From a virus, in IMG/VR virus record IMGVR_UViG_3300045988_137103: a stretch of DNA of 64,000 nucleotides; one strand, 5' to 3'. The notes under the pieces are model-generated. The model searched no databases, was not told where the DNA came from, and saw only the letters and a program-made list of their open reading frames with translations. Position 1 is the stretch's first letter, and each line of letters starts with the position of its first letter. The position numbers and the translations under genes are program-made. Below are positions 6,601 through 32,731 of the stretch, in pieces.

Positions 6601-9600
6601 TTAAGTTCTGAGCCATGTCACGCAAACGTCTAGGAGCCTCTATTATATAAGGTATAGTCTCGGCAAGTTTTTCTGCCCTGTTTTTCTTTCCCTTGTAATC
6701 AGAAAGCAACTTGTCAAAAACACCGCTATCAGCCATCTTCTCGATTCTGTTCTTCACATCATTGATATAGATGGCATCATCAGCACTAGCCTCTTCCATG
6801 TTCTTTCTACGATGGATAACGGCATGCTTAACGGTCTTTGCTGCACCTTCCTTGCTCACGTCAGTACTGGTCACTTCTGCCAAATCCTGCATCACTTGCT
6901 GCTCCAGTGCATCAGCCTTCGGATTGGTCTCTGCTGGGTAAATCTTACCCTCATACAAGTCCAGATCGGCTTGTTGCTGCTCCAGCAAATCATGTTTGGC
7001 CAGCCAGTCCTCATACTTGCGTTTCACCTCCTCCTGCTTCTTCTTTTCGAAGGCAAACATATCTGGCAAAGGGTCTTCCTGGTCCTTCATGGCTGACTGC
7101 CATTTCTCATATTCATGAATACGATTCATGTAGGCAGCATCCTCTTCACCTTCCATTCGGATAGGCATACCAGTAGGTTCCTCGCCAACAAGGTGGTGGC
7201 GTTCACGCCAGTCTTTATTGAGTTTTGCCCATTCCTTCTTGCCTACTTCATCCTTATCAATGTCGTAGAACATAGGAGGCTCTGGGTTCTCTTTATCCTC
7301 GCGCGCATTCTGCCACTTGCGCCATTCCTGTACACGTTTCATGTACTGAATAGTGCTTTCGCCCTTCTTCTGGCGTGGTTTACCCTTACCTGCACCATCA
7401 CCCAGCGCATCCTTGATTTCAGCATTGCTAGCCTGCTTCATCATGGCTTCCTGCTTCTCCTGAGGCATTTCGTCCCAAACGTGCAGAGCCTTGCCAGCCT
7501 TCATTAGGTAGTATCTCAAATCCTTGTCATTGAGAAGTCCCGGCACACGAACACCCAGCTTCTTAAGCACCTTGATAAGATAATGCTTAATCTTGGTCCA
7601 AAGAGAAAAGTCCTCAGCAGTCTTAGGACCCTCCTCGGCCAAATGAGCGATATACTCCTGCGTTCCCACATTCATGCGGTCAGGGTTCTTCCAGTCCGGA
7701 TCATATTTGTTGGCAAAGTCAATAATCTTGCCTCGAACATCCTTACCTACGGAACGATAAACGAAGTTGGCGAACTTTCTCACGCCATCTTCGCCACCAA
7801 GAAGTACTTCCATACCCTCATGGCCTATCTTTTCATGCAGCACCGTTCTCTCAGCCTCGTTGGCATCAGCACAGTTAGGCAGATAAACATGCACCGTGTG
7901 TGTAGTAGGGTCATACCATCCGGTAGCCCCATTCTTCACATCACTCAGATAAGCATCAGGAACCTCATCCACAGAAGTGTAAACTGTAGCCTCAGCACCA
8001 CCCAGTTTGTTGGCAGTGTTCACTACCCGGTCGCTCACTTGTTTCTGCTTGTCTGCATCCCAGTTGTTCTTGAAGATAGAGCTGCCAAGTCGTGCCAATA
8101 CATTTCTGCCCGACAAGTCATCCTTATTCAGCAGAGGAGCAATCACGCCCTGAGTCAACTGCACCGGAATACCATTACCAATGATGGTATGTGCCAAAGA
8201 TTCCGTCTTAGGCAATTTATAGTCATCGCCCAGTCCGGTAATCCTAGCCAATACCCTGCCATCTGCACGCAATACCTTTCCACCCGGCATGATGATCACA
8301 TCACCACTCTTGGTTCTCAGCGTAGGCAGAATTTCATCCCCATAGGCATGAGGAATCTTGCCATCGGCATAAGCACTACCCATTACATAAAGAGGCTTCT
8401 CCACCTTCTGCCAGTCGATACCATCAACCTTCAGTCTGGCATCCATCCATGGAGCCACACCGCTTTCTTTCACCGTCAGAGTAGGAAGAATATCCTCCAC
8501 AGCCTCTAGCCATCCACCCTTGCGTGGTTGCTTCTTAGGCTTTTCAGGCAGTTCTCCATCCTTCACGGCTCTGACAATTAGTCGCTCCCTGCTGGTATAG
8601 CCTCCAAAATCTGCGGCATTATACACGTCTACATCCCATTTGTAGCCGTTCTTATCCAGCGCCTGGGTGATAATCTTCATCGCCTCAGAGTCCTTGTAAC
8701 CCTTCACGTTCTCGATAGTCACCACTCGCGGTTTCACGGCATCAATGAAGTCGGCAGTGCTCTTGGCAGTCTCCTTGTCAAGCTCCACCTCTCCACTATT
8801 ACTCTTTGCCTGCGAGTAGTTCTTGCATACAGGAGAAGCGTGAAAATACTCTACCTCACCATCAATCTGCTTCACCAGTTCCTTAGGATCCACATCCCTC
8901 ACATCAGCCGTAACAATATGCTGCCCGAAGTTATTGCGATATACACCGCTTATCTTCCGGTCATACTCTACAGCCACCACTGGGTCGATAATGCCCTTCA
9001 ATCCCTCTTCAACCAGTCCACCACCGCTAAAGTAGGTACCTGCCTTCATCAGAGAATCAGGATGCTTCTTCAACTTCTGCTCCAAGATAGGAGATTGCGC
9101 ATTTTTACCGTACACCTTGGAATAATGCACACCATCATTCTCACCTCCTACGATTCTGCCTCTGTTATCGGTCTCCACAAACGGCACACCTCGCTTCTCC
9201 AACTCTTTTCTGAGACTTGGAGTAACCACATTCGAAGGCATAGTGATATTCTTGCCCTTGAACATATCATTGACGATAACATCAGCCACCTCGCTGTCAG
9301 GCACGATACGCACAGGCTTATCCCAACGAGAAAGCACCACTTTGCGCTTGCCTGTCAACTGTCCTTGGATGATACCAGCCTTCCACTCTACTTCGCCCAC
9401 GGCATCCTTGGCTTTATCAGCCTTGTAGCCACTGGTCAGCTCGCTCTTTGGCACCTCAACCTCTACGGTCACGATATTAGGGCGATTCTGAGCCTCGCTA
9501 AACTGGTCGTTCAGTGGAGTGCGAGAAGTATGAAGGTAAGGATTGTAAGCAGCCTTAAGCGATTTACCATTACCCTTGTTTAGGGTAAACATACCCTTAT

Positions 9601-12600
9601 CATCAGCAAGTTCTGGTCGCTCATCTGCCTGTTCCCACTTACCGAGTTCGATAGGTTCCACAAACTTGCCCTTCACCTTTGCAGCCATCGGTGGATAGAG
9701 TTTTCCATCTTCGCCTACCTGCATGGCACGATAAACCTTCACCGTGTCTTCTTTATCCAGCTTCTTGATGGTCTCAGGGTCTTTCACGATGCTATAGCTA
9801 GCATCATTCCCATTCATCACAATCTGCTCGTCACGGTTCACGTCCTCAGTTTCAGATGCCAAGGAGTTTCTGCGCTCCTCGTCCGTCATACCCAAACGCT
9901 TCTCCACATTTCGAGATTCAACTTCACCAGCCAACTTTCTATATTCTTGGTAAGAATCAAAGTCTGTACGCTGGAACCTATCCAAACGGAAACGCTTAAT
10001 GGCATCATCCATACTTCTGTCTGCATAGCCACGTGCGAAGTAGTTGAATCCCTTAATTCGGGTTTCCTTGTCAGGAATGAACTCAGGCATATCCATGTCC
10101 TTATATTCCTGAATAAGGGCTTTCTCTACAGCAGATTGGTTATACTCACCACCCATTTCCTTGGCTTTCTCTTCCAATTCAAAGGCATAGGAACGTGCCT
10201 TCCATTCAACCTTAGCAGCATTGAAATCCCTCTCCACCTGCTCGGGTGTGCCACCATGCGCAAACCCCTCTTCACGCTGAATTACGTGCTGAATTTCATG
10301 ATTCAGAATGCTATTCAGATACTTTAATTCATCCGCATGAATGGTAATAGTCTTTGTTTGTGGATTGTATTCCCCATTTGAAGGCATGTCATTCATTACT
10401 GCATCAGTATGGATTTTAATATTTTTCAACTGAGGATAAGCCTCAAAAAGCTTTGGTGCATCCACAGCATCTTCCAACTTACCATCAGTCCATAGCATAT
10501 CCTCTTCGAAACGTTTAACGATGTTTCCACCACCTACATCGATGGTGTCCTTTATCTTGGCATCAGGCATTTCGTATCTCCACTTGCCATCCACGCCTTT
10601 CTCCCAACCTGTAGCCATCTTGATAACCTTGGCATCCTTCTTTGCCTCTTCCATCTGCTTAGCAACATCCAGATTATCCATGCGGATAGTTCGCTCATCA
10701 GCCTTATCAGCCTCAGCAGCTCCCTTTTCTCCAGCAAACATGAAGCGAATATCGCTCTTGCGAGAATTGAAACGCTTAGAAGGAGGAATAACGTCACCCT
10801 CATCATCATAGGTAACAAGGTCGTTCAACTTTCTATTATTCTTGGCATTCTTGTATTTATACTCCTTGCCATCATCAAAGCCAAACTCGTTTGCGTCATT
10901 ACCATCCCACCACAGTTGAGTAGCCGGAACTTCGTCTTCAATGATACGATATTTGCCTTCCAGTCGGTTCGTTCCGTGCATTTCGGCATATTTCTTAGAA
11001 GGAGTAACCCAGTCACCATTACGCAACTTTCCTTCCTTCACAGAAGTAGGAACAGCACGATAAACCTTTACCTTAACATCCTTCTCGCCATTCTTAATGG
11101 CATCAATAGCCGTATTGATGGCTTTCACAGATTCCAATCCATGAGGAGTGTTCTGCGAATAACGCTCAGGGTGAGAGAAGTAATCATCAGGCTGAGGAGT
11201 GTACCCCAAAGCCATATCCTCCAGGTTTACATCTGAGCCACTGGATTCCCAATCGTCACGTCTCGCCTTGTCGCTTTCATATCCAGGGTTTCTCGGTGCA
11301 GCCCATGCACCTACGCCCTGATATGCGCTTTCGGTATCGTCATATCCCTTGCGTCTGGCAGCCTCATCAAGCATTTCCCTGGCTGTAGCATCATCACCCT
11401 TAGAAAGAGCATCCATATACTGCTTGTCAAGTTTATCATCAGGAATCAAAGAAAGTTCCTCCAAGTGCTTTTTGCGTTTGGCTTCCTCTTCCTCTGCTCT
11501 CTTTCTAGCAGCTTCCATAGCATTACGCTCTGCTTCAACCTGCTTTATTCGTTCCTCTATCATTGCATCAAGGTCACCAAAATTCTCCTTCAAGGCTTCA
11601 TTTATAGGTTTGGTGTACTTAACAACATCCTTAAATGAGAAAATGTTACCTTCATTTACCTGCATCAAGTGACGCTTAATATTGGCTCTGGCACGTGCAG
11701 CCTCAGCAGTAGAACCCTTCTTAACAGCATTGGCATACATTGCCACATCTGCCTCATCTACCCCAAATTGCTGAGATACAGCCTTAATTTTATCCTCCAC
11801 AGATAAATTTCCACCATTTTCCTTGGTGATTTCAAAGGAATTGCGTATCTTTGCATCGCTATGAGGATTCAGGACGCTATCCTTTCCGCTTGGGTTATTT
11901 GCGGATGGAGTTAATGCCGAACCTTGATTCTCGCCCAAGGAATTAGAATCGCCTCTGAAACGATTCCATAGCATTTTTGATTCCGTTAATTCTTTCAACA
12001 ATTTTGAAGGCTCTATTTGATGGGCACTGATTGAAACTTCATCCTCGCCTTGCTTTACGGTGATTGATTCAAAATTCAGAATCTTTGTTCCGTCTACTTT
12101 CTTGAAAGACTTTACAAACAGATACTTGGTCTGTCTTTCTGCACCTTCTTTAGGAGCAGGCTTCTCTAAGATAACATCTGGACGCTCCAAGGTAGGTTTC
12201 AATAGACCAAATCGTTTGATTCTGTCTTCTCTACCAGCCTTTTTATATTGGTTTTCACCTAACTTGATGCTACCTATTGGTGTATTGACACGACCATCCT
12301 TGCCGAAATCCTGTAACCAGTTATCCTCTGTATGTTCGAGGATTCTTTCAGGCTCGGCATTATCAGCCATCTGCTGGCGTAAAGACACAGCTTCGTCCTT
12401 GGTCATTTGACCTTTCAGCACGTTACGTGGGTCCACACCATTAGCCAAGTCTCTCAGCACAAGGTTACGAATATCCTCCAAGGTCATTTTCTTGATGTCC
12501 TCAGGCTTCCACTTGGTGAAGGTCTCCAAAGTCCAATACCAGAACTTCTTCAACCACTCCTTCAACTTATTGATAACACTCAGTTCCTTAGCTGTATCAA

Positions 12601-15600
12601 GCGGATTCTCCTTGATGGCATCCTTAGCCATCTGTTCAAGTATTGCTTCACCATCCTCACCAGTCAAACGAGCAAAAGCCTCATCGCAAATCTCGTCATC
12701 GCTCAGATGCTTATAGTTAGGATCCTTCTTCAAATCGGCAAATAGCTGGGTCTGCATGATGAGTTTATCACCATGCTCTATAAGTTCCGGATTCATGTTT
12801 TTGGCAGCAGTACGCCAAAGATGTTGATACTCATGAATAGGAGTATTAGGATTCAGATGCTCCGCGTTCAGCACAATCTGCTTGCCATCAGTGTAGCCAT
12901 AAACCACACCCTTTCCCTTCAAATACTGCACTCCAGGCTCAGCAACAGCCTTCAACTGATTATCTAACTCAACATACTTATGGAACAAGTCATCAAGTGT
13001 ATCTTGATACTTTTCAAAGGATTTATCCCTGTAGTCAGTCCAAACATCATCTGGAATATCGTTCTCAGAAGATAAACCGTGTTGGTCCATATAGTCCTGC
13101 ATTAACTGATTTTGATACTCTGCTCGCTCTTTCTTCTTGGCATTATAGGAATCCTCGGTTTCTTTAATCTGCTTCTCTAACTCGATTCTCTTATTGAGCA
13201 GAGATTCAGCCTTGTAAGGGTCAAACTCACTAGGAACATCACCCTTCACGTCCTTGATCTGCTCCTCAAAAGGCTTATTCAGATTAAATGCCTTGTAGTT
13301 TCCTATCTTCCAGGCATTGGTATAGTACTTGCGCCACTTCTCCGCTAAGTCCTTCTTTTCAAAGTACTGAGGAGGTTGGTTCGGATTATCCATATTGACG
13401 ATGGCATACTGCTTAAATTTGTCCGGTCTGTTCTTTGCAGCCCAGTCATAAGCTGCCTTGGCCGCCTCCTTCTGCTCAGGAGTCTTGATATAGAAGCGCA
13501 AACGAGGATCATTCAAAAGCATTTCGACTGCCAAATTATCCTGCGCCTCAGCCACCTTCTCCATATCCTCATTGCTAACAACCTTCACAGGGATGCCAGC
13601 CTTCTTAAGCATAGTAGATACAGTATCATAAGCCACCTTCTGCGCCTCCGTCATTTCCGAAGGCTTCACCTCCTTCACATCGCGGTCAAATTTCGCCTGT
13701 TCCTTCTGTACCATAGCATACTCCGCAAAAGGCTTAGTCTTGCGGTCAGAAGACTCCAGCCACTTATCAAAGGTAGTCTTAGGTACAGAAGTAACCTTAC
13801 CAAGTCCCTTCCAGCCCTTGGAGTAGTTGGCAAGATAAGCCTCTGTAGCTGCCTCTTCAGAAGGATAGCCATACATCACCTTATGCTCGTCAAACTCACC
13901 AGTCTCTGGGTTCACTTGGTCAACAACATAAACGTTACCATCAAAAGTATCAAGGTCAGCTGCATCATTGATGAACATATCAATATGATCACCATCAACG
14001 CCAATTTTACCAAGGATATAGCCGTAAGTATCGTGCATGGTCACACTCCAAGGCTTGCCCTGCTCGTCCTTACCGCTTCGAGTCACGCCCTTTGGTGTTT
14101 CTACGGTATAATCGTAGCCACCAAAGGACAAATGACCCTTTTTGTAGTTACCAGCCTTCTTCTGAGCCTCTGTAGGTTCGGTCTCAGTTTCGGCAATGGC
14201 ACTCTTTAAACGTTCTCCGAAGGATGCTTCTTGCGGTAGATGTGAGCCTCGAACAGCTGAGCCTTCGCCAGGTTCCATGCTGCCAGTCTCTTGTCGCCCT
14301 TTGCGTCCGCTATCAGAGCCTTCTCCAATCTCGGACTCAGAAGATGCTTCTCCGTTACCAACTTCTTCGCCTTGGCTATTTCCTTCATCAACTCCTCTCC
14401 GTGAAGAGTCGCTACCCAGGCTACTGCCTCCTCCATATCCTTCTTCATTGCTTCTGTCATCATAATCTGCTAATTCTGGTAAAATTGATTTGACATATTG
14501 TTTGTACTCTCGTTCACGATCCTCAATCTCCATCATACGGTCAAATTCAAGTCCATTGATGTGATCAAGTTCGCTTTCAGGCGGCAAAGATAACTCTTTT
14601 TCGTGAATATACGATTTATATTTCTCAATTTCTGCCTGTCTTTCGATAATTTCTCGCTCTTTCTGTGCTTCGTAATACTCTTCCTCGCTTGAAAGTTCAT
14701 CTTCTGCAGCTGCTATGCGGTTCATCAGAGCCACATTTCTCATTTCCTTCACACAGTCATAAGACTTGAACATATCAAGAAGGGTATTACGAACATCTTG
14801 ATCGGTATATCCCATATCCTGCAAGTTTACAGGAAGGTCATTATATACTCTCACAGCAAATTCGTTAACCGACATACCGGTTCCTTTCTTTGCAATAAGA
14901 TAATTGAACTTATTAGAATCATACCCCTTGCCAATACCAAACTTAAAATTGCTCTTGCCCAACTCATATTGAAGAGATTCTGGATTCAAGCTATGAGGAA
15001 GCAAAGACTCTGATACAGCCTCTTCGAGAGTCTGAGGAGTTAAGTCCATCACATCAACGGAAGCATCCTTATATATTTCATGGATAGCTTTCATATCGTT
15101 CTTCTTCAGCGCATCAGCCACCAATGCCTTGCGTTGCTCTGAAGGTGTCATGCCCAGTTTCTCCATTTCCTGCTTGCTAACTTCCGTTTTGTAGAGTCTG
15201 CTGAGTTTATTAGCCTGAGCCTTCAAACCCTTGGCAGCAACAGACAAATTAGTCTGCAGGGCCTCCAGTTGAGCCTTTGTAGTATTCAATTCCATAAGTT
15301 GGCTAGGGTCCAGCTCTGTTTCACCATTGATATACTGATCCAGCATATCATTCACACCATTTATCTTGCGCTCCACATCCTCCTGGGTATGATAGATGTC
15401 CTTGCGCTGAGAGGTAATATAGTCGGTAGCCTCATCCATAGTTGGATATTGCTTCTTCAATTCTTTATCATCAAGTACGAGCACATGGAAATCATCAGAT
15501 GGCACGATGGCTGATTCATCAACACCAGCCTTCTCTACCTCAGCCTTGCGCTCCTCCTTCATAGCTTTCACCTCATCAGGAGTCATCACACTGTTGCGGA

Positions 15601-18600
15601 TAGTATTCCAGTTCTTGAAACGAGCATCAAGATCTGCAATCTGCTCATTAACCAGACTCAACTCATCCTCCACCTTCTTAGCTTTTTCCGGGTCAAGATC
15701 GGAATTGGTATCAAGCCAGTTCTGATATTCAATAGCAGCCTTTCTCTTGTTGGCAAGTTGCGTTTTGATGTCATCACGGCTGCCATTAACCAGATTCAAA
15801 AGTTTGCCATGGTCTTCCCCAAACTGCTCCTGAAGATACTCAGCCGCCACATTTGGATCTGTATCTTTAGAAGAATAGTCCGGCTGGCCCTCGCTCAGTC
15901 CCACGATGCCATTGGCATAACGCTGTTTCTTATCAGCCTCAGCCTGAGAAACTGCTTTCTGCTCACGTTCATCGTCCTCGGCATCCAAATGCTCATTGAT
16001 TGTGTTGTCGAGCGCATTCTTGCGCCATGCTGCAAACTCTTCTTTAGATAGGGGAAGATAATCTTTGCCATCAGTAAGTACAATCTTTCCGTCCTTGCTA
16101 TATCCGGCAAAGGTCATATTGATATTAGCATCACCCTCCTCCATGGCAACTGTAACCTGGTCATTCGGCTTCAAACCGCTGCCATCAAACTGACTAATAA
16201 ACTGCTGCGCTCTTGCATCCTTCTGCTGAGCCACCGCATTTTCGATGTATTCATCAAGAGAAACAGGAGTGCCTACCTCTTTAATCTCGGCATTAGATAC
16301 CTGCTTAATCATAGGCTGTCCCTGCTCATCAGGAACGACAACAAAGGCTCCACCATATTCGTTAGCCTTCTTCAGGAAGACCTGTTTTCCGCTATCCAGA
16401 GTAGCTGACACGATGTTTCCGTCTTCCGTCTGGTATGGCCAGAGTTGCTGCTTCAACGCCTCACCATAGCCATCATCAGCATGCTGCAGAGCATCAATAG
16501 CACCCTTCTTGGCATCCATAGCCTCCACATACTTACTGATAGCCTCTTTCTGTGCCGGGGTCAGACTGGCACGCTGAGCCACAAACTGCTCCATATCTCT
16601 ACCCTCATTATAGGCATTGGCTACAATATCAGGCATCTTCTCGTTATCAGCAAACGCTCGCTTCAAACGTCCTGTAGCTAAATCACTATTATAGTCGATA
16701 GCCTGCAAAGCCTCAGAATCCCCATTCTTATAGGCATTCTGTCCCATAACAAAAGCATCAGAGCTTGCAACCTTAGGCTCATTTCCTGCACCCTCAGCAG
16801 CAGAGTTTGCAGGGTTTGCAGCAACTTCTGCATCACTCGGAGTTGGTACGGAGTTGGTACGGTCTTGATATGGAGCAGGTTCCTCTGAAACTGGAGGCTC
16901 CTGACCACTAGCAGAACCCTCTACAGAAGCAGGTCCCTCAACAGGAGTAGGTGGTTTTGCGCCATCAACATCGCCCTGCTCTATACGTTTTTTATCATCC
17001 TCTATCTGCTTCATTTCACGTTTCAGTTCAATGGAATTGTAAAGCTCCTTAAGATAAGACTCAACCAAAGGCGCATATTTCTTATCTTTCGACTCCAAAG
17101 CCTTACGAAGTGTACCGCGCGCCACGCCATGGGAATCCTCAAACGTGTTGACAAACTCCCTCATCACAGAACTATTCTCCAGAGCACTGTCATAATAATG
17201 ACGGTAGGCGTTAACCTGCTTCTGCTCCTCATCAGTAAGGATTACACCCTTCTGCTGCTTATCCATGATCTCCTTGATGGCACCAGCATTCTGATGAAGA
17301 TAAACCGCTGCCTTATCCTCATCTGTCAATTTCTCACCCATATTATATTTCTGGGCTGCCTTGTTGTATAAGCCATCAAGATGCTCCTGCGTAAACTCAT
17401 TGTGGAACTCACCTTCCAGCACAGAAGCCAAACCAAGAGTCTTATCATACTCCAGTTTCTTATCTGCTTTCTGAGCCTCATCAAGAGAAGAATACTCCTT
17501 TCTGTCAACAACACCGCCATCCTTGTTCAAAGTTTCGAGATAAACCTTGCCACCATTATCCATTGGTTGCACGATGATGGAATCTACAATAGGCGAGAAA
17601 GAAGAAGGTCGTTTGCCTTCTACAACTGCCATCATCTTAGCCTTCAACACCTCCGGAACACTCTTGTCGTTCATCAGGTCCATATACTTCTGGGTTAACT
17701 GCCCATCAAGTCGCTGAGCATTCTCACCAACCATAGCATACTCCCCGATGCCCATCTTCTCAAAAGCATCACGAAGACCATCATAGCCGAATCTCTTCAA
17801 CTCGGCAATATCCTGATCAGTGAAATCAAACTTCTTGTTAAACTCCCTTGCATCCTTGAATCGGGCATACTTGCCCACAAAACCAGGGAAACCAATAGAC
17901 AAAAGATTAGCACCACTCTCCAAGAAAGTTTCAGCAGCATCCTTGCCAGTAGGCTTGAAATTCGGGTCGTGCGCCATACGCTCCAACAACTGCTGACCGG
18001 TCATAATACCGGAATCCACAACCTTACCACCAATATCAGCCAGAATATTGGTAGCTAAGCCTCTGCCTTTACCTACCATGTTAGCGATTGTTCCACCCTG
18101 CATGATAGCACCTACGGCACTCTGTTTAGCCACTTCGCCCAAAGTGTTGGCAATAACCTTACCCACGGAAGGATTGTAAATCTTGCCATTCTCATCGAAC
18201 TGACCTGTACGATAAATCTCATCAATAGGCTTCGAGATTGCAGACTGACCACCAAAGGTAACAGCACCATGCGCGGCTCCACCCTTCAAAGCCGCGGCCT
18301 TGCTCTTGCCGATAAGCACCTTGGCAGCTCGCTCAGCCATCTTGCGCTCCATACCCTTAGCCATGAGGTCACCAGCCAGTTTACCCTCTGCCTTGGCTAC
18401 CATGCTCTTAGTCAACTTGCCACCTGCGGCTCCCGGCAGCCAATAACTCCAGGCATCACCTGCAAAGGTCAGAGCACCACTAGCTACGTTTTCCCAGAAG
18501 CCCGGCTGATACTGCTGATTGGCAATATCCTCCAGCCAGTTCTGGTAGTCCGTCTGAACAGCCTTGCGAGTAATCTTACCCACAATAGTGTTACCCAAGC

Positions 18601-20032
18601 CATTCTTCCAGATGTACTCAGCACTACCCTTAGGCATCATACCCTTAATCTCCAACTGATCGAGTTCATTTTTAAGAACAGAATTGATCATCGGCTTGAA
18701 CTGCTTAGGATCACTACTCTGAGTGCCATTCAAGCCATATCGCTGCATCACCTTAAATGCCGCATTGCTCATATCATTCAGGAACTCCGGATTCCGGTAG
18801 AGCCTGCCAAACTTCTTCTGCAAACTAGAAAGCACCTTTGCAGGATCCTTGGCCTCGTTTGCCTCATACTGAGCACCAAGTGCTGTACCCAGACGAAGAT
18901 TAGCCGGAATAAACTGGCTTCCTTCCATTCCCTCCGTAAATGCCTTACTGCCTGCCTCCTGAGCCTTGTTGTACTCATCCACTACAGATGGATTCACATA
19001 CTTACTGATAACGCTAGAAAGCGCATCATTGATGTCCTGATTCATCAGTCTGTCCTGCACATGCTCATCATGAGAATAGAGGCGTGTAGCAATACCCTCA
19101 GCGATGTCACGATAGTTCGGGCCATACTTGTTAACCAAACTCTGCACCATAGCTGGTTTCAAGAATTGTCCCACATAGTCATCATAGCTGATACCCATGC
19201 TGTCAGCCTCCTGCTTCAACTTATCCTGCACACCATGGCTATACCATTGTGCTTCGATACTCTTCTCAGCATCCTGCACAGTATCATCAGGCAAAGAAGA
19301 AACAACCTGGTTAGTTACGTCCATGGCTGAACGGTTGGCATATCTGCCCAGAGCAGACTGCACCATCTTAACAGCCTCCTCATTGTTATTGGCAGTACCA
19401 TCAGCTAACAAGTCGGCAACCATATTTTCGAAGTAAGTACCCTGCTTATCCGGTCTCTGCTTCCAGTTCTCCAGATAGTTGGCAAACTTGGCATCCATCA
19501 TGCCTTCATTATTCACCACACCAGTTGGAGTTGTAACAGGAGCCACTTCCTTAGATTCAGGAGAAGCGTGCTGCACAGTACTTTGCGGTTGATTATTGTT
19601 CACACTTGGCTGGTTAGCCTCTTGTGGCTGATTGTCTCCACCAAACAAGCCTGAAACAGTAGAAATCATCTTTCCTGGCATTTCCTTCAATTTATCCACA
19701 AAGTCATTACCAAAGTCTTTCACTGCTTCGGGAACCCTGTCTTTTCCTTCATTAGAAGAAGACGGATGCGCTGAAGGTTGCGCCACCTGCTGTTTTGTCT
19801 CAGTAGAAGCACTCTGATTCGTAGCAGAAGTAGATGGAGCTGGCTCCAACACCATCTTATCAAAGTCTGCCTGTGTTCCTACATCATAACCCATGTTCTT
19901 GGCCTCATTGTAGTACCAGTCACGATCTTCCTTGTTGTTCAAGTCCTTTTTAAAGTCATCATAGCTACCTACTTCATAGCCATTGTTCTTGAACTCATTA
20001 TAAAAATATTGTCTGTCTTGCTCGTCAAACAT
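3602..20032 (-). CDS. Giant polyvalent multi-domain protein (5,476 aa), putative packaged/ejected virion protein
   Basis: Single uninterrupted 16,431-nt ORF. One frame carries a PPase-like module, three zincin-type HExxH/HExxxH motifs, an R-S-ExE-like segment and a full C5-DNA-methyltransferase motif set. All + strand ORFs inside it are antisense shadows. Confidence 0.85.
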   Translation of the reverse strand: MFDEQDRQYFYNEFKNNGYEVGSYDDFKKDLNNKEDRDWYYNEAKNMGYDVGTQADFDKMVLEPAPSTSATNQSASTETKQQVAQPSAHPSSSNEGKDRVPEAVKDFGNDFVDKLKEMPGKMISTVSGLFGGDNQPQEANQPSVNNNQPQSTVQHASPESKEVAPVTTPTGVVNNEGMMDAKFANYLENWKQRPDKQGTYFENMVADLLADGTANNNEEAVKMVQSALGRYANRSAMDVTNQVVSSLPDDTVQDAEKSIEAQWYSHGVQDKLKQEADSMGISYDDYVGQFLKPAMVQSLVNKYGPNYRDIAEGIATRLYSHDEHVQDRLMNQDINDALSSVISKYVNPSVVDEYNKAQEAGSKAFTEGMEGSQFIPANLRLGTALGAQYEANEAKDPAKVLSSLQKKFGRLYRNPEFLNDMSNAAFKVMQRYGLNGTQSSDPKQFKPMINSVLKNELDQLEIKGMMPKGSAEYIWKNGLGNTIVGKITRKAVQTDYQNWLEDIANQQYQPGFWENVASGALTFAGDAWSYWLPGAAGGKLTKSMVAKAEGKLAGDLMAKGMERKMAERAAKVLIGKSKAAALKGGAAHGAVTFGGQSAISKPIDEIYRTGQFDENGKIYNPSVGKVIANTLGEVAKQSAVGAIMQGGTIANMVGKGRGLATNILADIGGKVVDSGIMTGQQLLERMAHDPNFKPTGKDAAETFLESGANLLSIGFPGFVGKYARFKDAREFNKKFDFTDQDIAELKRFGYDGLRDAFEKMGIGEYAMVGENAQRLDGQLTQKYMDLMNDKSVPEVLKAKMMAVVEGKRPSSFSPIVDSIIVQPMDNGGKVYLETLNKDGGVVDRKEYSSLDEAQKADKKLEYDKTLGLASVLEGEFHNEFTQEHLDGLYNKAAQKYNMGEKLTDEDKAAVYLHQNAGAIKEIMDKQQKGVILTDEEQKQVNAYRHYYDSALENSSVMREFVNTFEDSHGVARGTLRKALESKDKKYAPLVESYLKELYNSIELKREMKQIEDDKKRIEQGDVDGAKPPTPVEGPASVEGSASGQEPPVSEEPAPYQDRTNSVPTPSDAEVAANPANSAAEGAGNEPKVASSDAFVMGQNAYKNGDSEALQAIDYNSDLATGRLKRAFADNEKMPDIVANAYNEGRDMEQFVAQRASLTPAQKEAISKYVEAMDAKKGAIDALQHADDGYGEALKQQLWPYQTEDGNIVSATLDSGKQVFLKKANEYGGAFVVVPDEQGQPMIKQVSNAEIKEVGTPVSLDEYIENAVAQQKDARAQQFISQFDGSGLKPNDQVTVAMEEGDANINMTFAGYSKDGKIVLTDGKDYLPLSKEEFAAWRKNALDNTINEHLDAEDDEREQKAVSQAEADKKQRYANGIVGLSEGQPDYSSKDTDPNVAAEYLQEQFGEDHGKLLNLVNGSRDDIKTQLANKRKAAIEYQNWLDTNSDLDPEKAKKVEDELSLVNEQIADLDARFKNWNTIRNSVMTPDEVKAMKEERKAEVEKAGVDESAIVPSDDFHVLVLDDKELKKQYPTMDEATDYITSQRKDIYHTQEDVERKINGVNDMLDQYINGETELDPSQLMELNTTKAQLEALQTNLSVAAKGLKAQANKLSRLYKTEVSKQEMEKLGMTPSEQRKALVADALKKNDMKAIHEIYKDASVDVMDLTPQTLEEAVSESLLPHSLNPESLQYELGKSNFKFGIGKGYDSNKFNYLIAKKGTGMSVNEFAVRVYNDLPVNLQDMGYTDQDVRNTLLDMFKSYDCVKEMRNVALMNRIAAAEDELSSEEEYYEAQKEREIIERQAEIEKYKSYIHEKELSLPPESELDHINGLEFDRMMEIEDREREYKQYVKSILPELADYDDRSNEEGYGGGSSLGSDSSRRGVDEGNSQGEEVGNGEASSESEIGEGSDSGRKGRQETGSMEPGEGSAVRGSHLPQEASFGERLKSAIAETETEPTEAQKKAGNYKKGHLSFGGYDYTVETPKGVTRSGKDEQGKPWSVTMHDTYGYILGKIGVDGDHIDMFINDAADLDTFDGNVYVVDQVNPETGEFDEHKVMYGYPSEEAATEAYLANYSKGWKGLGKVTSVPKTTFDKWLESSDRKTKPFAEYAMVQKEQAKFDRDVKEVKPSEMTEAQKVAYDTVSTMLKKAGIPVKVVSNEDMEKVAEAQDNLAVEMLLNDPRLRFYIKTPEQKEAAKAAYDWAAKNRPDKFKQYAIVNMDNPNQPPQYFEKKDLAEKWRKYYTNAWKIGNYKAFNLNKPFEEQIKDVKGDVPSEFDPYKAESLLNKRIELEKQIKETEDSYNAKKKERAEYQNQLMQDYMDQHGLSSENDIPDDVWTDYRDKSFEKYQDTLDDLFHKYVELDNQLKAVAEPGVQYLKGKGVVYGYTDGKQIVLNAEHLNPNTPIHEYQHLWRTAAKNMNPELIEHGDKLIMQTQLFADLKKDPNYKHLSDDEICDEAFARLTGEDGEAILEQMAKDAIKENPLDTAKELSVINKLKEWLKKFWYWTLETFTKWKPEDIKKMTLEDIRNLVLRDLANGVDPRNVLKGQMTKDEAVSLRQQMADNAEPERILEHTEDNWLQDFGKDGRVNTPIGSIKLGENQYKKAGREDRIKRFGLLKPTLERPDVILEKPAPKEGAERQTKYLFVKSFKKVDGTKILNFESITVKQGEDEVSISAHQIEPSKLLKELTESKMLWNRFRGDSNSLGENQGSALTPSANNPSGKDSVLNPHSDAKIRNSFEITKENGGNLSVEDKIKAVSQQFGVDEADVAMYANAVKKGSTAEAARARANIKRHLMQVNEGNIFSFKDVVKYTKPINEALKENFGDLDAMIEERIKQVEAERNAMEAARKRAEEEEAKRKKHLEELSLIPDDKLDKQYMDALSKGDDATAREMLDEAARRKGYDDTESAYQGVGAWAAPRNPGYESDKARRDDWESSGSDVNLEDMALGYTPQPDDYFSHPERYSQNTPHGLESVKAINTAIDAIKNGEKDVKVKVYRAVPTSVKEGKLRNGDWVTPSKKYAEMHGTNRLEGKYRIIEDEVPATQLWWDGNDANEFGFDDGKEYKYKNAKNNRKLNDLVTYDDEGDVIPPSKRFNSRKSDIRFMFAGEKGAAEADKADERTIRMDNLDVAKQMEEAKKDAKVIKMATGWEKGVDGKWRYEMPDAKIKDTIDVGGGNIVKRFEEDMLWTDGKLEDAVDAPKLFEAYPQLKNIKIHTDAVMNDMPSNGEYNPQTKTITIHADELKYLNSILNHEIQHVIQREEGFAHGGTPEQVERDFNAAKVEWKARSYAFELEEKAKEMGGEYNQSAVEKALIQEYKDMDMPEFIPDKETRIKGFNYFARGYADRSMDDAIKRFRLDRFQRTDFDSYQEYRKLAGEVESRNVEKRLGMTDEERRNSLASETEDVNRDEQIVMNGNDASYSIVKDPETIKKLDKEDTVKVYRAMQVGEDGKLYPPMAAKVKGKFVEPIELGKWEQADERPELADDKGMFTLNKGNGKSLKAAYNPYLHTSRTPLNDQFSEAQNRPNIVTVEVEVPKSELTSGYKADKAKDAVGEVEWKAGIIQGQLTGKRKVVLSRWDKPVRIVPDSEVADVIVNDMFKGKNITMPSNVVTPSLRKELEKRGVPFVETDNRGRIVGGENDGVHYSKVYGKNAQSPILEQKLKKHPDSLMKAGTYFSGGGLVEEGLKGIIDPVVAVEYDRKISGVYRNNFGQHIVTADVRDVDPKELVKQIDGEVEYFHASPVCKNYSQAKSNSGEVELDKETAKSTADFIDAVKPRVVTIENVKGYKDSEAMKIITQALDKNGYKWDVDVYNAADFGGYTSRERLIVRAVKDGELPEKPKKQPRKGGWLEAVEDILPTLTVKESGVAPWMDARLKVDGIDWQKVEKPLYVMGSAYADGKIPHAYGDEILPTLRTKSGDVIIMPGGKVLRADGRVLARITGLGDDYKLPKTESLAHTIIGNGIPVQLTQGVIAPLLNKDDLSGRNVLARLGSSIFKNNWDADKQKQVSDRVVNTANKLGGAEATVYTSVDEVPDAYLSDVKNGATGWYDPTTHTVHVYLPNCADANEAERTVLHEKIGHEGMEVLLGGEDGVRKFANFVYRSVGKDVRGKIIDFANKYDPDWKNPDRMNVGTQEYIAHLAEEGPKTAEDFSLWTKIKHYLIKVLKKLGVRVPGLLNDKDLRYYLMKAGKALHVWDEMPQEKQEAMMKQASNAEIKDALGDGAGKGKPRQKKGESTIQYMKRVQEWRKWQNAREDKENPEPPMFYDIDKDEVGKKEWAKLNKDWRERHHLVGEEPTGMPIRMEGEEDAAYMNRIHEYEKWQSAMKDQEDPLPDMFAFEKKKQEEVKRKYEDWLAKHDLLEQQQADLDLYEGKIYPAETNPKADALEQQVMQDLAEVTSTDVSKEGAAKTVKHAVIHRRKNMEEASADDAIYINDVKNRIEKMADSGVFDKLLSDYKGKKNRAEKLAETIPYIIEAPRRLRDMAQNLNATGVFDKGHIHIQPADVEAIQPYVTDLITETAKKHTEIKKGKEIEVYDDPKAVSEVASKMAQAINANHQGEEGFVPCDGTDILSKHVLKLVKERVVPGRINYKELSPEMQAAIDSIRDWYNYTYDWLMDNHTLKAGTGYNVDYVNHIWDKEKSDPEAYATFVENRQRTKSPNEKKRTISTLMEGVYAGLVPKTTDITKMMAYYSRSNIEAWANKTMLQELTGLNVIERNEKGEVISTDPLLSSSAPFNLEQYKYFEIPGVGPVWVYNVSPKQVKVKNPITDNEKVLYSEASAGDRFGVVFDTYQSSPFWKTFDTLASSAKKLELGFSGFHAGALTEVYMVQNMVEFGPKKAMANFMKYIFADTAKNHELPCFANPEDFQEAASHLVKFGATNDYAAADVQNMFDNMRDAMIKVQKKLKDGNKISGTVAKASMPLKVATQMLSLINKGMDVALWDFLHDGLKLATYRMRADKTKERAKKKGWTEEELSRALDEDGQFVNDMFGGQHWDVLGASHRTLRYAGRVLLSSDWNASTTRHFLALTGFGSIWNEATFENFKQYYKRLKHKELAPEDEGRRSRQISALLCYGIGFMVFYEGIANGINAAFRALDEEKERKKAEEIRKTNPSYKSMYELAYGDEGIKWYDYLMRGNSLGQQSKIFLGRYEDGTEMYVRHGKQFREVPEYLFNHKGELEFPGPMVQRMIGKANPMVRMTLDDINYLSDFQASHADQEIQRKYGKTIGLLYKDALYWAPFLIPSQENKEFKAVDFFFPSSKGFSPWKAQSYFKDFILSGDMEGVVMTYQSCQRNGIDPEAQIKAAIGSVKALESAEMSDGVTSLQEASKRFDTAKSITEKKKMRQKMKKFLSQSDYKAFTQKEALDMVQGYLNGDEDLKEMEKAESKYLIKAKAEDVTEDWRIQNVWNGTMETYQEYQRLKDVDKAKANAFKNSKTNKRLFAARKAISAARRKMNKAKKQMDGTNDAAKLVEIRNTRKELLKTLNGME
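7817..7837 (-). other. Third metallopeptidase-like motif HEKIGHE inside the giant ORF
   Basis: Context AERTVLHEKIGHEGMEVLLGG. Confidence 0.4.
8150..9050 (-). other. C5-cytosine DNA methyltransferase domain inside the giant ORF
   Basis: Motif I YFSGGGLVEEG (about 9017-9031), motif IV HASPVCKNYS (Cys codon about 8825-8827), motif VI TIENVKGY (about 8706-8714), motif VIII GYTSRERLIV, motif X IIGNGIPVQL (about 8171-8182). All lie in the ORF frame and in canonical order. Confidence 0.8.
10286..10300 (-). other. Zincin-type metallopeptidase motif HEIQH inside the giant ORF
   Basis: Context LNSILNHEIQHVIQREEGFAHGG. HExxH followed by a downstream Glu. Confidence 0.5.
10870..11080 (-). other. Candidate ADP-ribosyltransferase-like segment inside the giant ORF
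   Basis: VKVYRAVPTS ... DWVTPSKKYA ... YRIIEDEVP gives Arg, Ser and ExE in the order and spacing of R-S-E ARTs. Weak, motif-level only. Confidence 0.3.
12821..12835 (-). other. Zincin-type metallopeptidase motif HEYQH inside the giant ORF
   Basis: Reverse complement reads CAT GAG TAT CAA CAT in the context NTPIHEYQHLWRTAAK. Confidence 0.45.
13750..14155 (-). other. Inorganic-pyrophosphatase-like domain inside the giant ORF
   Basis: Translation ...NYKKGHLSFGGYDYTV...MHDTYGYILGKIGVDGDHIDMFIND...EFDEHKVMYGY... parallels the family I PPase core (NYGYI...DGDPvDvlV). Confidence 0.5.
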
Positions 20033-29845: not shown

Positions 29846-30274
29846 ATGGAATCAGAAGAAGCAAAGTCCAAACAAAAAGAAAGGCAGCGAGAATACTATC
29901 TTAAGCATCGTGAAAAGTTGCTCGCCTATTCTCGCAAATACATCCAGGAGCATCCCGAAAAGATGAAGCTGTATAAGGAAAATGCTGCCAAGAAACGAGC
30001 CAACGGCACTGGATATTATCAGAGATACTATCAGCGCAACAAAGAAAAATTGCTGGAAAAATCTAAGAGCTGGAGACAGAATCACCCCGAAAAGGTGAAG
30101 GAGTACCAGCGCAGATACTATCAGAAGAAAAGAGCAGCAGCAAAGAAAGAGAAGAAGATAATGCTGAATCCAGATATAGATAAGGCAAAATCCCTCTTCC
30201 GTGATCCTTCCAAGGCTGTTCATCTACAGTGGCTCCTGGAGCACAACAAAATTAAGCAATATGAATCATGCTAG
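29846..30274 (+). CDS. Basic repeat protein (142 aa)
   Basis: Two internal repeats of the type YYxxxxEKLLxxSxxxxQxHPEKxKxY. Confidence 0.55.
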   Translation: MESEEAKSKQKERQREYYLKHREKLLAYSRKYIQEHPEKMKLYKENAAKKRANGTGYYQRYYQRNKEKLLEKSKSWRQNHPEKVKEYQRRYYQKKRAAAKKEKKIMLNPDIDKAKSLFRDPSKAVHLQWLLEHNKIKQYESC

Positions 30275-31307
30275 TTTATTCAGCGGAATCGGTGGTGCAG
30301 AGGTCGCGGCATCCATGATGGGATGGCAGAACCTCTTCCATTGCGAGATACAAGAGTCCCCTCGCAAGGTGCTCCAATACTGGTTCCCAAATTCAGAAAG
30401 TTATGAAGACATTACCAAAACAGACTTCCATCAGTGGCAGGGAAAAGTCGATATTCTCACCGGAGGATTCCCATGCCAGCCTTTTAGCGTTGCAGGCAGA
30501 AGAAAGGGAGAAGACGATCACCGCTATCTCTGGCCACAGATGCTACGAGCGATTCGGGAGATTAAGCCCACTTGGGTCGTTGGTGAAAACGTTATTGGAA
30601 TCAGAACTATGGTGGAGCCCGGTCAAGAGATTAAAATGGGACGCACAGACGATTTCTTCGAAGAGAATTACATATATCGAGAGGAAAGCAGGTTCACACT
30701 CGAAAAAATCTGCCAAGAACTTGAAGCAGCAGGATATTCCGTCCAACCGCTTAATATTCCAGCTTGCAGTGTCGGAGCACCCCACAGAAGAGAACGCGTC
30801 TGGATTGTTGCCCACCGTACAGACTCAGGGGCTGAAACGCTGCAACAAGAAAGGAAAAACAGAGTTCATGCCTCTAGATCTCCTTCCTACGCCAACAGCA
30901 ACAGACAAAGGAAGTGGAAGAATAAACAGAAGTCCTTCTCCCGGTGCTGCAGAACGTCCAACACTGGCCCTTGCCGCAAAACAAGGACTCTTGCCGACTC
31001 CTTGCGCCATAGAAGCAACAAAGTTCACCAAGACCTTCAACCCAAATTCTCAGATGGGGAAAAGTCTTACGGCATTGGCAAACAGCGGAATATTACCTTC
31101 TCGGTCCCAAAAGAAGATTTCTGGAAAGACTTCCCAACTCAATCCCCTCTATGTCGAAGAAATGATGGGATTCCCTTTGATGTGGACCGCCTTACCATTT
31201 CTTTCCCAAAGTGGCGAACAGAATCAATAAAGGCTTATGGCAACGCTTGGGTACCACAAGTTGCTTATGAGATATTCCGGGCAATAGAGGCAGAAGAAAA
31301 GAAATAA
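30261..31307 (+). CDS. C5-cytosine DNA methyltransferase (frame A, 348 aa from MNHASLFSGIGG)
   Basis: Motif I LFSGIGG, motif IV GGFPCQPFSVAG, motif VI VVGENVIGI, motif VIII APHRRERVWIVAH, C-terminal FPTQSP...SIKAYGNAWVPQV (motif X). The roughly 100 residues between motifs VIII and X are Arg/Lys/Ser-rich and look like out-of-frame sequence. Confidence 0.8.
   Translation: MNHASLFSGIGGAEVAASMMGWQNLFHCEIQESPRKVLQYWFPNSESYEDITKTDFHQWQGKVDILTGGFPCQPFSVAGRRKGEDDHRYLWPQMLRAIREIKPTWVVGENVIGIRTMVEPGQEIKMGRTDDFFEENYIYREESRFTLEKICQELEAAGYSVQPLNIPACSVGAPHRRERVWIVAHRTDSGAETLQQERKNRVHASRSPSYANSNRQRKWKNKQKSFSRCCRTSNTGPCRKTRTLADSLRHRSNKVHQDLQPKFSDGEKSYGIGKQRNITFSVPKEDFWKDFPTQSPLCRRNDGIPFDVDRLTISFPKWRTESIKAYGNAWVPQVAYEIFRAIEAEEKK
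30403..31230 (+). CDS. Fully overlapping +1-frame ORF (frame B, 275 aa) carrying LLPTP-type methyltransferase target-recognition motifs
   Basis: Open for 828 nt entirely inside frame A. Contains LLPTPTATD, LLPTPCAIE and LNPLYVEEMMGFPLMWT. From memory, these occur between motifs VIII and X of a phage/plasmid Dcm subfamily. Status unresolved: a separate product, part of a frameshifted MTase, or a relic. Confidence 0.4.
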   Translation: MKTLPKQTSISGREKSIFSPEDSHASLLALQAEEREKTITAISGHRCYERFGRLSPLGSLVKTLLESELWWSPVKRLKWDAQTISSKRITYIERKAGSHSKKSAKNLKQQDIPSNRLIFQLAVSEHPTEENASGLLPTVQTQGLKRCNKKGKTEFMPLDLLPTPTATDKGSGRINRSPSPGAAERPTLALAAKQGLLPTPCAIEATKFTKTFNPNSQMGKSLTALANSGILPSRSQKKISGKTSQLNPLYVEEMMGFPLMWTALPFLSQSGEQNQ

Positions 31308-31345: not shown

Positions 31346-32731
31346 ATGAAAACAGATGGCTACATTCTTACTCCAGAGCTGCTGCAGTGGCGTTACTTTC
31401 ATCGTCCGGTGGTGGTACAGGTGCTCATCTATGTGCTCCTGTCTGCCACCCACAATGAGGCTTCCGCTGCTACGCTCTCCTTACGTCTGTTGGCTGATCG
31501 GCTCCATACCTCTGTCAAGTCTATCCGCTGTGCCATCGATGTTCTCATACAGGAACGAATCATCACGAAATGCAGCTCTCCCAAAGCCTCAACAATCGTG
31601 TATGTTAACAGTTCGCATCCCCTCTCCCACTGCATCCTACCATACCAAAACCCACTTGGGGCACAGAATGGGGCACTCTTTGGGGCACAGATAGGGGCAC
31701 AATCAGGGGCACAGATTTTAACTTCACAAGTTACTGATACACAAGGTTGTGCAGCATATCTTCAAGACAACAAGGGCACAGATAGGGGCACGATTAAGGG
31801 CAAAGATGGGGCACGCTCTAGGGCACACCCTAAACAAGGGGCACGCCAAAAGGCACAGTCTAGGGCACAGATTAACAATCCCGAAACCCCTTTAAATAAA
31901 GGTGATTCCGAAGATTCTGCCGAAGTTGAGGGCACAGATAAGGGCAAGGGTAAGGGCACAGAAGTAAGAGGAAAGAAACAAATAAAAGAAAACATTTCCC
32001 CCGAACCCCCTATAAAAGAAAACAAACAAAGAAAGGAGAAAGCCCACACCCACACACAAAAAAAAGAAAAAGAAAAAAAGTCGCAGGATCCGGAAGTTCA
32101 GTTCTCGGAAGTGCTAAGACTCTTCAATCGCCTATTCCTGGGCACGCAGGTCAAGCCAATCTCAAAGATGACTCCCGACCGCAAGAAGATGGTAGCCAAG
32201 TTTATCTCAGACTACTCCTTCGAGGATATAGAACCAATGCTTCGCAAGGCTCTCAACTCAGATCTTCTCTCAGGGCGCAAGGATGGTGGATGCTATATCT
32301 CCTTCAACTGGATCTTCAATCCGAAGAACTACGAGGCTCTGATGGAAGGTACCTTCGACAACCCTACAGTTGCAGCCTCAGCCGGGAAGAAGCCTCAGCC
32401 TTCAAGTTCTCCACCATCTGCTCCTCCACAGCCTCAACGCGAGGAGACTAACGAGGAAATAGAAGCTCGCCTAAGAATGAAAGAAGAGCGCAAGAAGGAA
32501 TTGAAGAAAGAACAGACCGAAGCCCTACGGCAGAAGTATCTAGGCTGGATAGAAGCCGCCAAGAAGAACCCGAATGGTTCCATGGCAAAGATGGTAAAAG
32601 ATGCCTACAAGAATGGCACTCTAGCCAAACTGGGCATCGTCTGGAATCCATCGGTGGCAGAAGAAGAACAGTCACTGGCCGACTTGGATGATAAGACACA
32701 GAGTTATCTCCAGTCTCTCCTCGGCGACTAA
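31346..32731 (+). CDS. Putative replication initiator / replisome organiser (461 aa)
   Basis: N-terminal winged-helix-like region, an internal low-complexity region encoded by the GGGCAC iteron array, and a conserved-looking C-terminal domain. Position and iterons parallel lambda O-type initiators. Confidence 0.55.
   Translation: MKTDGYILTPELLQWRYFHRPVVVQVLIYVLLSATHNEASAATLSLRLLADRLHTSVKSIRCAIDVLIQERIITKCSSPKASTIVYVNSSHPLSHCILPYQNPLGAQNGALFGAQIGAQSGAQILTSQVTDTQGCAAYLQDNKGTDRGTIKGKDGARSRAHPKQGARQKAQSRAQINNPETPLNKGDSEDSAEVEGTDKGKGKGTEVRGKKQIKENISPEPPIKENKQRKEKAHTHTQKKEKEKKSQDPEVQFSEVLRLFNRLFLGTQVKPISKMTPDRKKMVAKFISDYSFEDIEPMLRKALNSDLLSGRKDGGCYISFNWIFNPKNYEALMEGTFDNPTVAASAGKKPQPSSSPPSAPPQPQREETNEEIEARLRMKEERKKELKKEQTEALRQKYLGWIEAAKKNPNGSMAKMVKDAYKNGTLAKLGIVWNPSVAEEEQSLADLDDKTQSYLQSLLGD
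31658..31965 (+). repeat. Iteron-like array: about 17 copies of (G)GGGCAC(A/G) with about 12-bp phasing
   Basis: GGGGCAC starts at 31658, 31670, 31682, 31694 and 31707. Further copies lie near 31773, 31785, 31808, 31820, 31837, 31850, 31862, 31929 and 31953, plus degenerate GGGCAA units. Embedded in the initiator ORF, so a candidate ori. Confidence 0.6.

Follow-up and report, generated by a model that had tools for sequence, protein, structure and literature searches.

Two conserved overlapping frames in a phage cytosine-5 methyltransferase gene: a probable alpha/beta enzyme of the M.EcoHK31I type

The 64,000-nucleotide virus sequence IMGVR_UViG_3300045988_137103 from IMG/VR, referred to here as the window, carries a DNA cytosine-5 (C5) methyltransferase gene that is open in two frames of its + strand. 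Frame A, the proposed alpha subunit, runs from an ATG at 30261 to a TAA at 31307 (30261..31307, 348 aa) and encodes the large catalytic domain. Frame B, the proposed beta subunit, is in +1 phase relative to A and lies entirely within its span, from an ATG at 30403 to a TAA at 31230 (30403..31230, 275 aa). Both frames are maintained and selected, and the layout is widely conserved. The motifs of a C5 methyltransferase are divided between them, with I-VIII and X in A, and LLPTP modules and motif IX in B. The locus can be read, with a probability of about 70%, as a phage 'orphan' DNA cytosine-5 methyltransferase made as two polypeptides from one DNA in two frames. In design it is a two-frame alpha/beta C5 methyltransferase of the M.EcoHK31I type, known but rarely cited, here with the proposed recognition region in beta.

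Two frames kept open and under selection

The nested frame came to attention through an earlier sequence-only reading of the window, which placed both frames exactly and judged a 275-codon frame to be an outlier. It is an outlier: the next-longest same-strand nested open reading frame (ORF) of the whole window has 112 aa (31356-31694, inside the gene at 31346-32731, + strand), against the figure of about 160 codons given in that reading for other same-strand alternative-frame ORFs. The third reading frame of the methyltransferase locus contains 15 stops over the same span. Openness was assessed by holding one protein fixed and drawing synonymous codons at random from the codon usage of the window. 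With the A protein fixed, about 0.1% of trials leave the +1 frame without a stop along the 136 upstream codons that both frames share; with the B protein fixed, frame A is open over the 139 downstream codons in none of 20,000 trials (P below 5e-5), a result that is consistent across seven diverged loci with 139-257 downstream codons.

Selection was estimated as the ratio of non-synonymous to synonymous substitution (dN/dS) from a codon alignment of 63 unique loci, in which differences were classed by their effect in both frames following the logic of OLGenie. Over 30406-30815, dN/dS is 0.28 (confidence interval, CI, 0.20-0.37) in frame A and 0.49 (0.35-0.68) in frame B; over 30816-31191, it is 1.20 (0.90-1.66) in A and 0.37 (0.30-0.47) in B, and modules that are present only in relatives give 1.45 and 0.48, respectively. 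Sliding windows give 0.36-0.60 for A and 0.25 for B at 30586-30675, and 0.30-0.52 for B in the variable region of beta (30805..31122). A stretch of ~90 nt (31126..31215) is doubly constrained, with purifying selection in both A (0.23-0.28) and B (0.12-0.22). The bias of overlap-aware dN/dS was controlled on the non-coding frames of three neighbouring single-coding genes, where the +1 frames give 0.83-0.87 (CIs down to 0.62) and the +2 frames 0.86-1.14. Against control values of 0.83-1.14, a ratio of 1.2 is therefore neutral and ratios of 0.37-0.49 denote constraint.

The pattern of substitution agrees in the middle segment, where changes pile up at the third positions of B (74,212, against 36,277 and 30,697 at the other two). 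The start codon of beta (30403..30405) is built from the Tyr-Glu codons of frame A (tAT-Gaa) and is preserved in 63 of 63 loci. The Tyr codon that forms it is TAT in every one of these, with a window-wide TAT:TAC ratio of 329:189 (TAC 36%), and at a Tyr codon 21 nt upstream these loci have TAC in some cases and TAT in others. Frame A is neutral in its middle and yet free of stops there, and frame B is constrained throughout; the middle of A is therefore a translated, sequence-free tether, and B is a real protein over its full length.

The 1047 nt of the gene are identical, with zero differences, in three other, independent metagenome assemblies (one of which comes from a Hadza sample), in all of which frame A is called as the gene. 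Among 80 related, diverged loci on IMG/VR viral contigs, both frames are open in about 90%, the exceptions being single stops or indels in either frame; the length of A tracks that of B at about +74 codons, and B ranges over 254-421 aa. The arrangement is kept at 40-90% protein identity over the 63 unique loci. The comparison of related loci that the sequence-only reading had suggested thus shows two frames that stay open and are both constrained, and the overprinted second protein that it had listed among its explanations is supported by selection on both frames and by conservation of the layout. B homologues number 3228 at E<=1e-3 in a 90%-clustered collection and fall into 3060 clusters at 50% identity.

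A megablast of 24 kb around the locus found no close relative among GenBank phages. The cultured Bacteroides phages BS-TP4 and BKO1-TP3 have DNA that is about 70-74% identical and an annotated frame-A methyltransferase with a matching odd middle and C-terminal module, within which lies a +1 ORF with the motifs of B (372 aa in BS-TP4, 320 aa in BKO1-TP3). The same nesting is seen in Paenibacillus larvae phages such as Shelly, where the inner ORF is 'g55 internal gene' in GenBank, in Lactobacillus phage Lc-Nu, on an Arsenophonus plasmid, in an E. coli prophage and in two distant loci, L091 and L092. In the loci examined, B is always nested in an A-type gene and never stands alone. The number of LLPT(P) modules is 3 to 5 among the 63 loci and about 10 in L092, where B reaches 575 aa and frame A runs for 633 codons without a stop.

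In L092 (417-2661), where the LLPTP-type modules of beta number roughly 10, the methyltransferase is disrupted in its N-terminal part; the called gene upstream has a weak NUMOD-like (homing-endonuclease) match beside PF00145, and the methyltransferase gene may contain an insertion. In the metagenome proteins P0015, P0034, P0106 and P0111, of 323 aa each, the N-terminus of A is joined to B, after motif IV in P0106 and P0111, after RYL in P0034 and after REIK in P0015. P0106 occurs on 5 contigs, and all four proteins are without motifs VI-X; indels from sequencing may account for them, or they may be variants that lost function naturally.

Division of the methyltransferase motifs between A and B

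Frame A matches PF00145 (E=3e-40, limited to profile positions 1-237 of 324), TIGR00675 (dcm, E=8e-34) and phrog_363 'DNA methyltransferase' (E=4e-71, residues 1-344), and has the C5 methyltransferase motifs I (FxGxG), IV (PCQ), VI (ENV) and VIII (RxR) in order in one polypeptide. Its catalytic core (30261..30812), aligned to M.HhaI residues 15-122 and 130-170, contains motif I LFSGIGG (30276-30296), motif IV GGFPCQPFS (30462-30488), motif VI VGENV (30579-30593) and motif VIII APHRRERVWIVA (30777-30812). The core is followed by the tether, 106 Ser/Arg/Lys-rich, stop-free codons (30813..31130) with neutral dN/dS, and then by a C-terminal module (31131..31307) that is under purifying selection and is kept in BS-TP4, BKO1-TP3 and L091. 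This module comprises FPTQSP...FPKWR (31131-31217), which reads FPTQSP...KWRTESIKAYGNAWVPQV, and motif X GNAWVPQV (31239-31262). The four motifs, the Arg/Lys/Ser-rich middle and the C-terminal FPTQSP had all been described correctly in the sequence-only reading. A full set of variable region, motif IX and motif X on the same polypeptide as I-VIII is absent from frame A, and no PF00145 match was found for its C-terminal half alone.

Frame B opens with an N-terminal region of 134 aa (30403..30804) that lies over alpha motifs IV-VIII; it has a dN/dS constraint of its own and is in part a shadow of the A motifs, in that B has LVKTLLES where A has VGENV, and EDSHAS where A has GGFPCQP. It continues into a variable region with LLPT(P) modules (30805..31122), the proposed target-recognition part, assigned by dN/dS and by homology to what lies between motifs VIII and IX in the single-frame methyltransferase of a Mycobacterium prophage. 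Here are found LLPTV (30805), LLPTPTATD (30880-30906), LLPTPCAIE (30988-31014) and NPNSQMG (31039-31059). These shadow readings, and the positions of the two longer LLPTP motifs in B, bear out what had been read from the DNA. Motif IX, GKTSQLNPLYVEEMMGFPLMWT (31123..31188), can be aligned to GKTRKLHPRECARVMGYPDSY of M.HhaI and precedes motif X, as it should. Frame B alone matched no family in Pfam or NCBIfam, and has a hit to phrog_1008 'DNA methyltransferase' (E=2e-17).

An A-B-A chimera covers PF00145 positions 1-323 of 324, of which positions 244-323 are matched only with the B segment joined to the end of A (E=0.017). Three colinear blocks of the chimera align with M.HhaI, the first holding motifs I-VI, the second motif VIII and the third motifs IX and X; in the motif IX block GKTSQLNPLYVEEMMGFP of B pairs with GKTRKLHPRECARVMGYP of M.HhaI, and in the motif X block YGNAWVPQV of A pairs with FGNSVVINV. 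The family alignment proposed in the sequence-only reading gives a chimera that spans the whole of PF00145 and reaches motifs IX and X of M.HhaI. The homology put forward there was also right: B residues 141-262 have their homologue in a Mycobacterium prophage methyltransferase, where the part separating motif VIII from motif X is in a single frame. In solved C5 methyltransferases, the large domain consists of motifs I-VIII together with X, the small domain of the target-recognition domain (TRD)/variable region and motif IX (PMC3404938). A therefore corresponds to the whole large domain, and B to the small domain with an extra N-terminal region.

A proposed two-subunit enzyme and its competitors

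In the proposed mechanism, alpha would form the catalytic large domain, with motifs I-VIII and then X, and would read the small-domain DNA out of frame as a sequence-neutral Ser/Arg/Lys-rich tether, the sole demand on which would be the absence of stops. Beta would initiate at its own ATG within alpha, just before motif IV, and would consist of a region that probably docks onto alpha, the variable LLPTP modules and motif IX, together the DNA-recognising small domain. The separately translated subunits would assemble into an active enzyme, as for M.EcoHK31I, that would methylate phage DNA and presumably evade host restriction. The small domain is an insertion within the primary sequence of the large domain, so a simple cut would part motif X from the core, as in M.AquI; reading through the small-domain DNA in the other frame would let alpha retain motif X on a flexible tether.

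Docking of the N-terminal region of beta onto alpha would follow by analogy with the beta N-terminal deletions of M.EcoHK31I (PMC2836561); in the AlphaFold2 (AF2) model of B this region has helices at 27-65 and a hairpin at 77-123, with a predicted local distance difference test score (pLDDT) of about 65-79, and L77 and W79 are invariant across 74 diverse homologues. Target recognition would fall to beta, where a module number that varies from 3-5 to about 10 suggests that recognition is modular. No cognate restriction endonuclease gene, as would complete a Type II restriction-modification system, was found among the neighbours checked, which are a 142-aa basic protein (weak HNH match only), a replication-initiator-like protein and a resolvase-like protein; the methyltransferases of BS-TP4 and BKO1-TP3 lie in a similar replication-module context. 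The position of the gene in a phage replication module with no nuclease partner makes protection of phage DNA from host restriction its likely role.

Several observations weigh against this proposal. Independent translation of beta and its assembly with alpha are inferred from the sequence. The constraint on the N-terminal part of B (0.49, CI 0.35-0.68) barely clears the control range of 0.83-0.87. The motif IX match is weak taken alone (PF00145 E=0.017; M.HhaI domain i-Evalue 2.8), although the motif is nonetheless colinear and strongly conserved (B dN/dS 0.12-0.22). The AF2 model of B has a pLDDT of 43 with 25 close homologues and is of medium confidence with 74 diverse ones (pLDDT 60.9, predicted TM-score 0.32); Foldseek of this model against the PDB returned nothing at E<=0.001, and a B profile against PDB sequences gave one chance match only. 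A few metagenomic variants have a stop or an indel in one frame. Lastly, the TRD of M.EcoHK31I is reported in alpha, not in beta (PMC2836561, PMC3404938).

The competitor that the sequence-only reading leaned towards is programmed recoding, in which a ribosome would shift +1 after motif VIII into B and -1 after motif IX back to A to make one A-B-A enzyme, the long open frames being incidental. Only the chimera, of the constructs compared, covers PF00145 from end to end, its motifs follow the order of M.HhaI, and a single-frame counterpart is known in the Mycobacterium prophage. Recoding, however, gives no cause for A to be stop-free over 106 to >400 neutral codons, or for B to be open, with a conserved ATG, over 137 upstream codons. 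Purifying selection acts on A at 31131-31217, where the recoding ribosome would be in frame B, and at 30586-30675, which lies upstream of any shift that would be of use, constraint is stronger on B than on A; selection on both frames at 31126-31215 is something that a single ribosome path cannot account for. Direct reading reveals no stop in A after motif VIII and no +1 stop-codon-type site, and the X XXY YYZ slippery heptamer was not found at 31189-31230, the part of frame B that runs from the GFPLMWT motif to its stop, while both frames stay open for >100 codons beyond any junction. We know of no precedent for two efficient shifts in one gene, which also counts against recoding. The neutral but stop-free middle of A, the ATG of B and the double constraint make this explanation improbable.

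A less improbable, though still unlikely, alternative is that A and B are two real proteins that do not form one enzyme, alpha either lacking a small domain or being inactive, and beta acting independently as a DNA-binding, regulatory or anti-defence protein derived from a captured recognition domain. Selection on both frames would fit two independent proteins, as would the 134-aa N-terminal region of beta, which is constrained in its own right and belongs to no known family, and the wide variation in module number. Against independence, motif IX and the variable region are parts of the small domain, from which every specific contact with DNA comes in the M.HhaI and M.HaeIII structures (PMC3404938), while in alpha the sequence that lies in that position is not conserved. 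B is moreover nested in an A-type gene at every locus examined, and the biochemical precedent, M.EcoHK31I, is a heterodimer.

The conservation of B might also arise at the nucleotide level, from RNA structure or codon bias acting on the A gene, B being untranslated. Much of the N-terminal conservation of B does shadow A motifs (KTITAISG/EDDHRYLW, GSLVKTLLES/WVVGENVIG and FQLAVSEHPTEE/IPACSVGAPHRRE), but in the middle segment, where A is neutral, substitutions are concentrated at B third positions and B has a dN/dS of 0.37, and for its middle and C-terminus there are homologous stretches in single-frame enzymes, where they are translated. The third-position pattern and dN/dS contradict nucleotide-level constraint without translation of B, and there is very little chance that it holds. 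Artefact or decay, with two compensating indels in a once single-frame gene and both frames open by chance, deserves least credence of all. The rare single indels that fuse A to B in P0015, P0034, P0106 and P0111, and the variants with single stops, are what this explanation would expect, but the three independent assemblies are identical, the arrangement is conserved across 63 loci and several bacterial phyla, selection is detected in both frames, and chance would leave the two frames open together with a probability of less than 1e-3 times 5e-5. Errors of sequencing or assembly and a recent pseudogenisation, both raised in the sequence-only reading, are thus refuted by the identical assemblies, by diverged loci with both frames open, by the openness test and by selection. 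Of its overall interpretation, the overprinting option stands; the A-B-A leaning is disfavoured, and the M.EcoHK31I precedent was missed.

Genomic setting, annotation and known systems

Elsewhere in the window, a single 5476-aa ORF at 3602-20032 (- strand) occupies about a quarter of the DNA. It carries the Pfam domains InPase, PBECR2 and LPD23 (a 'large polyvalent protein' domain) together with a complete single-frame C5 methyltransferase domain (PF00145 7-319 of 324), so that the element has a second, conventional cytosine methyltransferase within a polyvalent protein. Immediately upstream of the two-frame gene, a 142-aa Lys/Arg/Tyr/Glu-rich ORF (29846-30274, +) shares its last 14 nt with the beginning of frame A; it has no Pfam match and only weak PHROG matches (HNH endonuclease, E=2e-4). 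Downstream, the gene at 31346-32731 (+) encodes a replication-initiator-like protein (phrog_345/DnaD-like) with a low-complexity GAQ-rich tract. No tRNA or tmRNA genes were found in the whole window. Related IMG/VR contigs are mostly 57-64 kb, so the window, at 64 kb, may represent nearly the entire genome of a phage.

The arrangement is poorly served by annotation. Gene callers choose either A or B. In the prophage of E. coli Ec1117 (L087, 1493-2662), an A-type ORF that is intact, with 400 aa when counted from the listed start, contains a nested B-type ORF of 334 aa. PGAP breaks it up into two pseudogene pieces labelled 'incomplete; partial', probably for want of a methyltransferase model that fits the tether. 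Functional methyltransferases are therefore probably under-counted. A bolder reading, put forward tentatively and somewhat short of an even chance, is that the layout is an old, phylum-spanning design of phage orphan C5 methyltransferases, extending over thousands of protein clusters, in which beta would acquire and shed LLPTP cassettes and alpha would translate that DNA as a tether needing only to be free of stops. If that is true, few same-strand dual-coding regions of prokaryotic viruses are as long (about 830 to 1700 nt) or as widespread, and annotation pipelines routinely mishandle them, with beta as a 'hypothetical protein' and alpha as 'pseudogene' pieces.

A split two-frame architecture known from one studied enzyme appears to be common in phages. 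The recognition part is suggested to lie in beta, and if so, module swaps could alter specificity without changing the catalytic subunit. The locus also offers a rare, well-controlled example of a long same-strand overlap with three kinds of segment, in which both frames are constrained, only B is constrained, or A is merely open. In the literature searched, too little notice seems to be taken of how widely the arrangement occurs, how clean its selection map is and how frequently it is mis-annotated.

M.EcoHK31I, reported by Lee, Kam and Shaw in 1995, is reportedly part of a Type II restriction-modification pair, whereas the gene here sits in a phage replication module without an adjoining nuclease. 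In that enzyme (from E. coli HK31, recognising YGGCCR), beta is encoded wholly inside alpha in another frame, alpha has motifs I-VIII as well as X, beta has motif IX; both are required for activity, and truncation of the beta N-terminus weakens association (PMC2836561, PMC3404938). The likeness is one of layout as published, and extends to a beta ORF that lies entirely within the alpha gene but in a different frame, an alpha with motifs I-VIII plus motif X, and a beta with motif IX (weakly matched when taken alone). In the present locus, both of these parts of alpha are under purifying selection. The subunits are of about 38 and 23 kDa in M.EcoHK31I, judged by pET construct names, and of about 40 and 30 kDa here. 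They differ in the place of the variable part: the stretch of alpha between motifs VIII and X is here of low complexity, with a dN/dS of 1.20, rather than a TRD, and the conserved modular region is in beta.

M.AquI of Agmenellum quadruplicatum is also a natural two-polypeptide C5 methyltransferase whose parts must combine (PMC3404938). It has a single cut in the variable region, giving an alpha with motifs I-VIII and a beta with IX-X, so that motif X leaves the large subunit, and there is neither a long nested overlap nor a read-through tether.

The Paenibacillus larvae phages (Shelly gp55/gp56 and about 45 relatives) have the same nesting of B in A. B matches over 98% of its length, with 26% identity (E=1e-8), but these phages infect a different host phylum, have a different alpha C-terminal module (W.EP...RVGRIKALGNAV) and carry fewer modules. 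In the passages available from comparative-genomics papers on Paenibacillus phages, two cytosine methyltransferases are described and the overlap is not discussed. A literature search for a nested gene in phage methyltransferases found no description.

Single-chain actinophage C5 methyltransferases, such as gp23 of the Mycobacterium prophage prophiT46-2 (L005), have the same order of parts, with motifs I-VIII followed by LLPTP modules, then F.EWMMG.P.GW as motif IX and GNGVVPQQ as motif X, but all in one frame and one polypeptide. L005 also has a residual 116-aa +1 ORF (1202-1552) over its catalytic core, with an LLPTPRA motif; this ORF (...WPTSGTTRNG...SSLLPTPRAAAD) resembles the N-terminal region of beta, a hint that indels may convert single-frame and two-frame versions into each other.

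The multispecific methyltransferases of Bacillus phages SPR, phi3T and rho11s are orphan C5 enzymes in which the variable region consists of tandem, swappable recognition modules, all within single polypeptides in one frame. The likeness to the present locus lies in a phage orphan C5 enzyme with a modular variable region, and a target of its own for each LLPTP module is hypothetical here.

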